Source: Escherichia phage vB_EcoM_PTE-Eco15. From it: a stretch of 64,000 nt of DNA. The position numbers and the translations under genes are program-made. Below the pieces are notes generated by a model. That model saw only the letters and a program-made list of their open reading frames with translations, ran no database searches and had not been told where the DNA came from. Below are positions 29,383 to 31,193 of the stretch, piece by piece. The first letter of the stretch is position 1; every line of letters starts with the position of its first letter. The stretch lies in sequence record PQ352352.2; one strand, given 5' to 3'.

Positions 29383-29991
29383 ATGAGAATGCAAATTGAT
29401 TTCAATTCAATGTTTGAAGAATTCCAAAGACAAGTTGATGTTCCAGACCAATTATTAAATGCTCTTAAACGTATGGCAGAAGGGCGTAATTATTATTGGG
29501 GTTCTTCATATGAAACTAATGAAAGTCTTTCTGGAAGATTTTCCAGAGGTAAAAAGTCTTTAATACGTCCTGGAATACTTATTAACAGTATTGAATCAAT
29601 TCATTCATTGACGTGTGATTTTGATGTTGAATTTACTGATTTCATTTCTCCTGAATGGACAGTATGTTATTTAAACGACGATTTTGATTATCTTGGCGTT
29701 TATAGTTTAAGTGACGCATGGTTTAAACGTAATTTACAAAAGTCAAATTTATTTTATATTGATACTACGGTAAAATTTCAGGGAAAGAAATATTTCTTTA
29801 CTCTTATAGTTGATTCTGAAACGAAGCATGAAAATAAACGTATTCTTAGTAAAAAGAATATCTTAACTATTGTTGATGATCTTTTTGATAAATTCGTGGA
29901 AAATCCTAGTTTTGAAAGCGATTTATTACTAGAAAAATTTGTTAAGGAATGTAGAGAATATGTCAAAGCCATCAATGTATCTTCCAAGTAA
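29383..29991 (+). CDS. Hypothetical protein (first of a translationally coupled 4-gene array)
   Basis: 202 aa; GGAG RBS; C-terminal FVKECREY motif shared with the next three genes. Confidence 0.55.
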   Translation: MRMQIDFNSMFEEFQRQVDVPDQLLNALKRMAEGRNYYWGSSYETNESLSGRFSRGKKSLIRPGILINSIESIHSLTCDFDVEFTDFISPEWTVCYLNDDFDYLGVYSLSDAWFKRNLQKSNLFYIDTTVKFQGKKYFFTLIVDSETKHENKRILSKKNILTIVDDLFDKFVENPSFESDLLLEKFVKECREYVKAINVSSK

Positions 29992-30352
29992 ACCTGTGAA
30001 GTATGAATTAAAGCGCCAGCTAATTCCTACTGATATATTAATAGGTCCTGTGACAGCTATATCATTTGTAATTCTATTGATTGTTGGAATGGTTATAGAC
30101 TTTATGACTGATATTGAATCTGACGTAATATTTCTGTTAGTATTAATTCTTCCATTTGTAGTTCCATTTTTATTAGTACCTATAAATTGGGTAGGATACT
30201 GGTATCAAGGAAGACATTATCGTAAACGCGTACGTGAATGGAAAGCTCAGTGTAAAAAGATTAAAAAGGAACATCAGCTTAAACTAGATATGTATGAATT
30301 TAATGAAATTATGAAATTTGTTAAGGAATCACGATGCAAAAGCCAAAACTAA
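29960..30352 (+). CDS. Hypothetical 2-TM membrane protein
   Basis: 130 aa from internal ATG (MSKPSMY...); two hydrophobic helices; C-terminal FVKESRCK motif; start lies inside the previous gene. Confidence 0.5.
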   Translation: MSKPSMYLPSKPVKYELKRQLIPTDILIGPVTAISFVILLIVGMVIDFMTDIESDVIFLLVLILPFVVPFLLVPINWVGYWYQGRHYRKRVREWKAQCKKIKKEHQLKLDMYEFNEIMKFVKESRCKSQN

Positions 30353-30708
30353 ATAAAGTCAAATATTCTTTTTCTGAGTCATTTTTAATTTTTGCTGTGG
30401 CATTGGCTGCAGCTCTTGCGGGTAGTCTTATTGGATTGTTAATTGACTGTTTTATTTTAAACATCCGCAGTAACGTCAGCGGTATAGTAGATATAATAGA
30501 AGTTTGGAGTGAACTTCATTATACTATAGCAATTTCATTATTTTCATTCTTTGGTATTATTTTATATTTTCATTATGATAATTTTAAAATAAATTGGCAA
30601 AGAAAAAAGGATTACAAAATACAATTAAAAGAATATAATAACTACATATCTTATATTGAAAATGAATCAATGAAAGAGTTTGTGAGTGATTGCAGGAAAA
30701 TCAAATGA
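30334..30708 (+). CDS. Hypothetical 2-TM membrane protein
   Basis: 124 aa; two hydrophobic helices; C-terminal FVSDCRKIK; start overlaps the previous gene. Confidence 0.5.
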   Translation: MQKPKLNKVKYSFSESFLIFAVALAAALAGSLIGLLIDCFILNIRSNVSGIVDIIEVWSELHYTIAISLFSFFGIILYFHYDNFKINWQRKKDYKIQLKEYNNYISYIENESMKEFVSDCRKIK

Positions 30709-31189
30709 TTTTAAAAACTCGCTGGTATGATTTAGATGATGGGGACGATGGCATTTCAGTCGATAGAGTTGACTGGAGCGGCTGTTCTGAAGATACAAAG
30801 AAACGATTAATTAGGGAGTTTAGAATGGGATATCAAGCAGTTAAGCCATCTACTGTAACAGATGATAAATTCGTGTGTATTCAAAATGGTCGTGCTAAGT
30901 TAACGAACGCTGATTGGTTCACAGATAAGAAGGTTATTCTGTGGTATATTATTAGTTTTCCTGTGACATCATTTGTATTTTGCTTCTTTGGAGAAAGTCC
31001 AGTAGGCAGAACGGAAGATTGGATTCTTTTAATTATACTTGTTAATATTTTTACAGCAGCAGTACTATCAGGAATATGGTGCGTGTTCATTGAAATGCCA
31101 TGGCGTTTACGCAGACAGCAAAAGATTTATGATGAAAAGAAATATGCTCAAAATTTAAATAGCTTTATCACTGAATGCAGGAAATTAAA

Positions 31190-31193
<4 letters not shown>
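30705..31193 (+). CDS. Hypothetical 2-TM membrane protein
   Basis: 162 aa from ATG in an ATGA overlap; two hydrophobic helices; C-terminal FITECRKLK. Confidence 0.5.

Follow-up and report, generated by a model that had tools for sequence, protein, structure and literature searches.

Overlapping genes e.5 to e.2 of a T4-like phage: repeated junctions, predicted membrane hairpins and a shared C-terminal tail

Four consecutive genes of a T4-like phage carry much the same short peptide near their C-terminal ends, and some of the junctions between them repeat each other at the nucleotide level. What holds such genes together? They occupy positions 29383–31193 of a 64,000-nucleotide stretch of Escherichia phage vB_EcoM_PTE-Eco15 (record PQ352352.2), which is called the window below. 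The explanation that we consider probable, if by no means certain, is that they form a coupled early accessory segment, made up of the soluble protein e.5 and a set of diversifying inner-membrane hairpins, in which a shared and selected tail helix doubles as initiation region and as recombination microhomology.

The 1811-bp interval has 100% identity to Escherichia phage vB_Eco_Geo, which is closely related to T4; at the nucleotide level, it is ≈93% identical to T4 itself. Its four open reading frames (ORFs) are the T4 genes e.5, e.4, e.3 and e.2, long known as hypothetical genes, and they read into nudE. Gene starts were taken to be those ATGs that have a Shine–Dalgarno (SD) sequence, which gave the following genes (positions are those of the window; aa, amino acids):

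29383–29991, plus strand: e.5, soluble, 202 aa, with FVKECR at aa 186–191 in a predicted C-terminal helix.
29960–30352, plus strand: e.4, a predicted 130-aa two-helix inner-membrane hairpin with a basic tail and FVKESR, from hydropathy, Hessa sums and charges.
30334–30708, plus strand: e.3, a predicted 124-aa two-helix hairpin with a basic tail and FVSDCR-KIK, from hydropathy and charges.
30705–31193, plus strand: e.2, 162 aa, with an acidic N-terminal domain of ≈75 aa, a predicted hairpin, a basic stretch and FITECR-KLK.
31190–31630, plus strand: nudE (Nudix hydrolase), final cistron of the presumably coupled run; Pfam NUDIX, E = 4e-13; phrog_1185.

All four proteins matched PHROG families over the whole profile: e.5, phrog_2607 (1.3e-107); e.4, phrog_2604 (1.9e-70); e.3, phrog_2330 (1.9e-61); and e.2, phrog_2203 (1.3e-77), which carries the name "membrane protein". 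The older T4 entry L13089 lists e.6 as msp3, e.5–e.2 as msp4–msp7 and nudE as msp8, and the T4 proteins e.5, e.4, e.3 and e.2 have the UniProt identifiers P39223, P39222, P32274 and P32273, respectively. Gene order is the same as in T4 (GT7): a tRNA cluster (25569–26927 in the window), e.8–e.6, e.5–e.2, nudE and then the lysozyme gene e. The opposite (minus) strand of the interval holds short ORFs only.

An initial annotation, made from the letters without database searches, had described four start-to-stop overlapping ORFs reading into nudE, and this was borne out. The e.5/e.4, e.4/e.3, e.3/e.2 and e.2/nudE overlaps are 32, 19, 4 and 4 nucleotides (nt) long, the last two consisting of ATGA. 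All of the genes are on the same strand, each start codon overlaps or abuts the preceding stop, and each SD sequence lies within the last codons of the preceding gene, with an SD free energy (dG) of −4.3 to −6.1 kcal/mol and spacers of 5–10 nt at the window junctions. SD strength and spacing were tabulated for 18 junctions in five phages. The SD was located inside or directly after the codons of the shared tail motif at all four window junctions and at most junctions in the other phages, placed either in K-E codons (AAG GAA) or in C-R-K codons (TGC AGG AAA). There are two types of junction, each bracketing one cassette:

29935–29962, plus strand: type A, copy 1; AAATTTGTTAAGGAAT (codons K-F-V-K-E, SD AAGGAA), a 10-nt spacer and the e.4 ATG; SD dG −6.1 kcal/mol.
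30314–30336, plus strand: type A, copy 2; AAATTTGTTAAGGAAT, a 5-nt spacer and the e.3 ATG.
30679–30708, plus strand: type B, copy 1; TTTGTGAGTGATTGCAGGAAAATCAAATGA, comprising tail codons, SD CAGGAA and the ATGA stop/start overlap.
31164–31193, plus strand: type B, copy 2; TTTATCACTGAATGCAGGAAATTAAAATGA, leading into nudE.

The type A copies share an exact 16-mer, starting at 29935 and 30314. The type B copies, 485 nt apart, agree at 24 of 30 positions, and the 18-mers that had at first been singled out as nearly identical agree at 16 of 18. Random pairs of 141-nt pieces of the window exceeded the local-alignment score in 0.03% of cases for type B and 0.07% for type A. Types A and B compared with each other scored at the null mean, so that no one junction sequence is common to all. 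The type B repeat seems to continue for ≈30 nt into e.2 and nudE from their 5′ ends, but this continuation was gapped, out of frame and weak, and was set aside. The start of nudE itself is ambiguous: the equivalent of the T4-annotated ATG is at 31175 (151 aa), within the e.2 motif codons (GA-ATG-CAG) and without an SD, and the ATG at 31190 (146 aa, as for msp8 in L13089) has CAGGAA 6 nt upstream and the ATGA overlap. At the e.3/e.2 junction, the place equivalent to 31175 is occupied by TTG.

AT-rich DNA yields many spurious promoter-like and short-repeat matches, and the ORFs and repeats might be chance features of such phage DNA rather than real coupled genes. We give this hardly any credence. 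The junction-pair scores were reached by <0.1% of random pairs, and the tail motif is unique in the genome. The ORFs are conserved in >500 genomes, e.2 sequence being found in ≈442 of 504 close relatives; orthologues in other genera have 17–56% identity, and all of the genes have been detected as proteins in T4.

The tails read FVKECR in e.5, FVKESR in e.4, FVSDCR in e.3 and FITECR in e.2, followed by 11, 5, 3 and 3 aa, respectively, before the stop. The motif F-[VI]-x-[ED]-[CS]-R is thus present in all four proteins, as originally proposed, but in e.5 and e.4 it is not at the extreme C-terminus; its position in these two is shortly before the start codon of the following gene. A search for F[VI]x[ED][CS]R in six-frame ORFs of at least 40 aa across the 64-kb window returned five matches, four of which are these tails. 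The fifth, FINDSR at 57187 (plus strand), lies 23 aa before the end of a 105-aa ORF and has no Cys. The stricter pattern [FW][IV]xxC[RK] matched three times in the whole 167-kb genome, each time at the e.5–e.2 locus; shuffling gave an expectation of 1.3 matches anywhere and 0.29 at C-termini. Over 26 tails, the consensus is a hydrophobic residue at −3, E at −2, any residue, F (24/26), I (21/26), two variable positions, C (20/26) and R (23/26), followed by basic residues, and the peptide persists in at least seven T4-like lineages. In a helix, tail positions −3, 0, +1 and +4 share one hydrophobic face, which is how a docking helix would usually look.

The initial annotation had suggested that part of the motif might reflect a conserved initiation region. 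In its strongest form, this would make the motif a coding shadow of that region, the four proteins being otherwise unrelated and the peptide having no function of its own. Most junctions do hold an SD (AAGGAA, GAGG, AGGAG or CAGGAA) in motif codons 3–4 or 5–7, with spacers of 5–10 nt, and the position of the motif in e.5 and e.4 follows the start of the next gene and not the C-terminus. The peptide is kept, however, whether the SD is in codons 3–4, in codons 5–7 or outside the motif. In Dhakavirus e.5, the SD is downstream of the motif, and the next start codon is 22 nt beyond the motif end; in Klebsiella e.5, the SD is also elsewhere (14–22 nt downstream in these cases), and the motif also occurs in a soluble Klebsiella protein of 102 aa whose gene is not coupled to its neighbor. 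The SD is not encoded by the best-conserved residues, F, I, C and R, and it shifts between the K-E and C-R-K codons while the peptide stays constant. Synonymous codons differ between junctions: TGT or TGC for Cys; AGA, AGG, CGA or CGT for Arg; TTT or TTC for Phe; and ATT, ATC or ATA for Ile. An alignment of e.5 from five lineages, at 17–47% identity, has only eight invariant columns, and these include F186, C190 and R191. Finally, the e.4/e.3 alignment described below spans the full length of the proteins and not just the tail. A mere ribosome-binding-site shadow is consequently quite improbable. Because the tail persists across lineages with varying codons, even where the SD is elsewhere, it can be regarded as a peptide selected at the amino acid level, whose codons usually also provide the SD and the stop/start overlap of the next cistron.

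Natural variants bear on how the junctions behave. In T2, RB32 and PP01, the match to the 1811-bp query stops at base 1326, where e.3 ends, and e.2 is absent. The T2 sequence runs ...GAGTTTGTGAGTGATTGCAGGAAA directly into TTAAAATGAAAACA..., so that the body of the e.3 tail is joined to the nudE-side half of the repeat, and the breakpoints of e.2 presence and absence fall inside the repeated TGCAGGAAA. In UFV05 and UFV06, a 106-aa hybrid (P0143) consists of e.4 residues 1–32 fused in frame to e.2 residues 89–162. The switch between the two genes occurred within the shared CCTGTGACA; e.3 has been lost, which leaves the order e.5, hybrid, nudE. The corresponding site in the window is in the first transmembrane segment (TM1) of e.4:

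30046–30055, plus strand: TCCTGTGACA, microhomology in e.4 TM1, with a second copy in e.2 at 30959–30968; the UFV06 hybrid switches from e.4 to e.2 here.

In T4 itself, e.2 has suffered a 1-nt deletion (T4 GT7 locus 4811–5279, equivalent to window 30705–31193). The annotated T4 product of 102 aa ends inside the first hydrophobic segment and has neither the second segment nor the tail, whereas the phage studied here, like most relatives, encodes a full-length 162-aa e.2 with hairpin and tail. A 102-aa e.2 cluster (P0193) is also found in Yersinia phage fPS-2 and others. In view of the T2-type, UFV05/06 and T4 e.2 variants, the junction and TM microhomologies appear to be used in nature, to give products that are in frame, and to leave individual members dispensable.

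The nearest known parallel for this kind of shuffling is the modular exchange mediated by PeSLs in hyperplastic regions of T4-type phages, where non-essential early genes are gained, lost or swapped via short conserved flanking sequences (Arbiol et al. 2010, PMC2839356; PMC4122927). Both systems shuffle modules by recombination at short conserved flanks. PeSLs, however, are intergenic and consist of a sigma-70-like early promoter and a stem-loop terminator, whereas the repeats described here are intragenic and comprise the last codons of one gene, an SD and the next start. No promoter with stem-loop was found at the junction repeats at 29935, 30314, 30679 and 31164, such an arrangement occurring only upstream, around e.8–e.6. 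Because the repeats are intragenic, exchange between them would keep reading frames and coupling and could yield in-frame chimeras.

Hydropathy analysis of the proteins in which these tails occur gave two hydrophobic segments in each of e.4, e.3 and e.2:

e.4, aa ≈24–46 and ≈55–80 (nt ≈30029–30097 and ≈30122–30199), plus strand: hydrophobic segments.
e.3, aa ≈16–44 and ≈61–80 (nt ≈30379–30465 and ≈30514–30573), plus strand: hydrophobic segments.
e.2, aa ≈77–96 and ≈104–130 (nt ≈30933–30992 and ≈31014–31094), plus strand: hydrophobic segments.

The 19-residue Kyte–Doolittle means of these segments are 1.8–3.0 and their position-independent Hessa sums −2.2 to +1.1 kcal/mol, and basic C-terminal tails follow, in agreement with the earlier description of members two to four as two hydrophobic helices plus a basic stretch. 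T4 annotation already labels e.2, e.3 and e.4 "predicted membrane protein". No hydrophobic segment is present in e.5, e.6 or nudE (Hessa sums of at least +10.6; Kyte–Doolittle maximum of 0.87 in e.5). In the 17 members of the family that were compared, from five phages, the interhelical loop is net acidic with 0–2 K+R, and the C-terminal tail has 8–15 K+R, consistent with hairpins oriented N-in/C-in and a cytoplasmic tail helix. An AlphaFold2 model of e.2 has a helix at 69–95, a loop and a long helix at 103–161 that covers the second hydrophobic segment and continues across the motif (predicted local distance difference test score, pLDDT, of 51; low confidence). The e.5 model has an alpha/beta fold with a helix at 180–199 holding the motif, again at low confidence (pLDDT 51; predicted template modeling score 0.48). 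Homologues of e.4 and e.2 have been assigned to precomputed families PF26873 and PF26896, respectively, and an N-terminal LYLPSKP and a post-TM2 EWKxQC are conserved in the e.4 proteins of Dhakavirus, Yersinia and Klebsiella phages.

That the members are related to each other was supported by profile–profile alignment. The e.4 and e.3 profiles aligned end to end over 112 columns (hhalign E = 2e-6; reversed control 0.28). Profile e.3 matched ORF133c (E = 6e-6), ORF133c matched my117 (E = 1.4e-5), and e.2 matched my112, a 112-aa hairpin of myPSH1140, over both helices and the tail (E = 4e-7); reversed-sequence controls mostly gave E-values of 0.02 or worse. In addition, e.4 TM1 and e.2 TM1 share 19 nt with a 6-nt indel in between. 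With moderate confidence, then, e.4, e.3, e.2 and the extra members elsewhere would constitute one deeply diverged paralogous hairpin family, found so far in T4-like phages only. The initial annotation had proposed a cassette array built by recombination at conserved junctions. The recombination part of this idea is supported by the e.2 indel at the repeat and the UFV05/06 chimera, but the array looks like a set of diverged tandem paralogues that were later trimmed by recombination and not like an assembly of unrelated cassettes.

The distribution of the genes differs between e.5 and the hairpins. In every locus examined, the gene right after e.6 encodes a motif-bearing e.5-like protein. This is the case in T4-like and RB69-like (Mosigvirus) phages, Dhakavirus, Yersinia phage P8 and Klebsiella phage Roth01, and also in Karamvirus myPSH1140 (as an ORF missing from the annotation), Aeromonas phage avDM2 and Klebsiella phage phi1_146015 (with an internal motif). 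The hairpins with the same tail vary in number and position. Proteins like e.4 and e.3 occur in Mosigvirus, Dhakavirus and Yersinia P8; Mosigvirus has, in addition, a member resembling ORF133c as well as a distant e.2; Klebsiella Roth01 has three same-tail hairpins, and myPSH1140 has a separate run of four. Since ≈3 kb of other genes lie between e.3 and e.2 in RB69-like phages, the T4-type adjacency of these two genes is probably derived. An exhaustive HMMER search with e.5 gave six matches, consisting of close relatives and fragments, of which one (P0199) was a spurious repeat protein, and added no new branch to the family. The RefSeq record of Enterobacter phage myPSH1140 contains two unannotated motif-bearing ORFs, at locus positions 5156–5821 and 6325–6720. 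The first encodes an e.5-like protein of 221 aa with ...DFINYCRGQ... at its end, and the second a soluble protein of 131 aa with ...SFIRMCRKN....

When are these proteins made? Time-resolved T4 data place the RNAs of e.2 to e.6 and nudE in the early class; as proteins, e.4 and e.5 are classed as early, e.2, e.6 and nudE as middle and e.3 as late, and all were detected (PMC9697503 supplements). Early promoters are annotated in L13089 before e.8, e.7 and e.6, and none inside e.5 to nudE. A scan of the sequence found promoter-like sites upstream of the same three genes and no terminator-like site on the plus strand inside the e.5–nudE block. Weak promoter-like consensus matches also occurred inside the block, the scanned region having 27 against 18.1 in shuffled sequence (standard deviation 3.9), an excess of ≈2 standard deviations.

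The early timing bears on two functional alternatives, both of which start from the resemblance of the hairpins to Imm and the class II holins, which are likewise small two-helix phage inner-membrane proteins. The first, raised in the initial annotation, is that the hairpins are superinfection-exclusion or envelope-modifying factors. Like Imm (83 aa, two hydrophobic segments) in their gross architecture, they have early RNA, and their variable presence among relatives fits a role in interaction with hosts or competitors. Against this, hhalign of the e.4, e.3 and e.2 profiles with the Imm of this phage gave E-values of 0.092, 0.014 and 0.24, comparable to those of the controls, and no similarity was found to the gene next to imm. 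The phage already has imm, there is no sequence sign of DNA-injection blocking, no exclusion phenotype is known, and e.2 is inactivated in T4 itself. We therefore consider an Imm-like role improbable, although as a statement about function it could be compatible with the accessory-segment explanation that we prefer.

The second alternative is that the hairpins regulate lysis in the manner of holins or antiholins, either as remnants of a lysis cassette beside the endolysin gene e or as its modulators. Their predicted layout of two TM helices, N-in/C-in, with a highly charged basic C-terminal tail, is like that of a class II holin, and their genes precede the endolysin gene by 0.5–2 kb in the same orientation, with a like proximity in Klebsiella phage Roth01. 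However, hairpin RNA is early rather than late, the canonical holin gene t is elsewhere in the phage, and the hairpin profiles have no similarity to holin T. In RB69-like phages, Dhakavirus and Karamvirus, the arrays are many unrelated genes away from e. No lysis phenotype is known; among the guides retrieved from a CRISPRi-ART screen there was no knock-down phenotype, and e.2 is a pseudogene in T4. A function in lysis is thus very improbable. The retrieved guides against e.2, e.3, e.4, e.5, e.6 and nudE were all "Not Fit", with scores of ≈−1.7 to +0.4, and the corresponding entries list prior essentiality of e.2–e.6 and nudE as unknown (PMC11879866 supplement). We read these retrieved guides as indicating no strong defect on the laboratory host.

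A coupled accessory segment would work as follows. Early transcripts would begin at the e.6 promoter or further upstream, and coupled translation would yield the proteins in roughly stoichiometric amounts. The tail docking helix would link fast-evolving proteins to one common inner-membrane partner early in infection, for which e.6 is the best candidate and a host factor the alternative. The junctions would serve as microhomology for precise loss or gain of e.2, and the TM1 microhomology would give rise to in-frame e.4::e.2 chimeras. The proteins themselves might be conditionally useful accessory factors, acting in host-membrane interaction or defence interplay and dispensable on laboratory E. 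coli.

The candidate partner and its immediate surroundings are:

28748–29341, plus strand: e.6, a coiled-coil-like soluble protein; phrog_1203, E = 8e-88.
29347–29362, plus strand: stem-loop GGGGC-UUCG-GCCCC in the e.6/e.5 gap, a G+C-rich inverted repeat read from the sequence; L13089 has a stem_loop after msp3 (e.6).

A tblastn search found e.6 in 1106 phage records from many genera, and the mean column identity in a five-locus alignment was 83%. Across genera its identity is 61–88%, which places it among the best-conserved small proteins of the region, and some pipelines label it "host specificity protein". An assignment of e.6 as PspA/IM30-like, which would make the locus an analogue of the psp operon, was rejected at the sequence level, there being no Pfam or PDB profile match and an hhalign probability of 0.3% against E. 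coli PspA.

Several points weigh against the explanation given here. The architecture for translational coupling of e.5–nudE is present, but coupling itself is deduced from this anatomy, and the T4 protein classes, with e.3 late and e.4 and e.5 early, are not what would be expected from simple stoichiometric coupling. The orientation of the hairpins is predicted by a single criterion, the positive-inside rule, and both AlphaFold2 models, with pLDDT scores of only ≈51, were built from shallow alignments. All of the profiles are shallow as well. Direct comparison of e.4 and e.2 gave an hhalign E-value of 0.04, which is not significant, and the place of e.2 in the family therefore depends on the intermediates and the 19-nt TM1 identity. 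A reversed e.3–e.2 control reached E = 9e-4, so matches confined to the tail carry little weight by themselves. That e.6 would most likely be the docking partner was deduced from two properties, gene order and conservation. As to function, Pfam, NCBIfam and PADLOC searches at E-values up to 1 assigned e.5–e.2 to no characterised family, sequence-profile searches of PDB with e.5 and e.6 gave no match, and a fold search of BFVD with the e.5 model returned only uncharacterised e.5-like proteins of other T4-like phages.

A bolder version of the docking idea, which we consider rather unlikely, takes the tail to be a portable peptide for docking or targeting, equivalent at the C-terminus to the capsid-targeting sequence (CTS). 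It would tether changing effectors, both soluble e.5-like proteins and numerous membrane hairpins, to a conserved hub, for which e.6 is the best candidate, in an early inner-membrane complex, and new effectors would be swapped in frame at the junctions together with the peptide and its coupled expression. The CTS, found on T4 internal proteins and reportedly described as to its role by Mullaney and Black in 1996, is the closest parallel for such a peptide. In both cases, a short conserved terminal peptide is found on divergent, rapidly exchanged proteins of the same genome neighborhood, and the core F-I-x-E recurs; the CTS-bearing ORFs of the window at 27318, 32914 and 33238 start MKTYxxF[IL].... 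The CTS, however, is located at the N-terminus and has a prohead-protease I-x-E site as its last part, whereas the e.5–e.2 peptide is C-terminal, has Glu in only 15 of 26 tails and is best conserved in Cys-Arg, which is absent from the CTS. On these grounds, the tail was rejected as a prohead-protease site or CTS proper. Most carriers of the e.5–e.2-type tail are, moreover, membrane proteins made early.

If the accessory-segment explanation is correct, four genes that have been "conserved hypothetical" since T4 was sequenced become a defined and testable system. The common selected C-terminal peptide in at least seven lineages predicts a common partner and offers four residues, F, I, C and R, for mutation. 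One short sequence would do three jobs, as peptide motif, as ribosome-binding site with stop/start overlap and as recombination microhomology, and this triple role would explain how cassettes can be lost, gained or fused in a coupled operon without breaking frame or expression, complementing the intergenic PeSL mechanism. With e.2 frameshifted in the T4 reference, studies of this gene should not be made in T4. No description of the shared tail peptide, the paralogy or the junction-mediated indels and chimeras was found in searchable papers and annotations. Literature searches by gene name turned up no main text that deals with e.2–e.5, and supplementary tables alone were informative.

Some of the names attached to these genes in databases could be discounted. 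Many NCBI records of e.3 and e.4 homologues carry a rhodanese/sulfurtransferase label, which was rejected, as no such domain was matched in Pfam or NCBIfam at E-values up to 1; the name looks like a propagated misannotation. Names such as "DNA primase" and "head outer capsid protein", each given to such homologues in single records, likewise have no domain support. A search for defence and counter-defence functions gave no PADLOC family at E-values up to 1.

The stem-loop between e.6 and e.5 is a perfect tetraloop hairpin and is followed by GGAG, a possible RegB-type site, within the e.5 SD. This hairpin may have a role in setting the ratio of e.6 to e.5–nudE expression, or in mRNA stabilisation. 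Rfam searches of the region identified no RNA family; the sole match, to Hammerhead_II, scored 21.6 bits against a threshold of 37 bits and was attributed to chance.

In the neighborhood of the locus, ORFs with internal-protein, capsid-targeting-type starts were seen on the plus strand at 27318 (MKTYAQFLMTE), 32914 (MKMYQEFIAEA) and 33238 (MKTYKEFIAEA), and probably also at 32153. The internal-protein gene set of the window differs from the ipII/ipIII arrangement of T4.

A second tandem array follows the e.3-like gene in RB69-like, Dhakavirus, Yersinia P8 and Karamvirus phages. It consists of 2–5 small soluble paralogues of 65–101 aa, which end in G-W-V-S-S-S-x-x-C, with an invariant C-terminal Cys, followed by TAAGGAAxxxxATG, again a repeated junction made up of tail and SD. 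These arrays are outside the window, at the following locus coordinates:

5784–6578: RB69-like phages.
4691–5936: Dhakavirus.
4691–5712: Yersinia P8.
5799–6325: Karamvirus.

Several database entries under "E. coli", "Salmonella" and "Shigella" were found to sit on contigs of ≈165–170 kb, which are evidently T4-like phage genomes.

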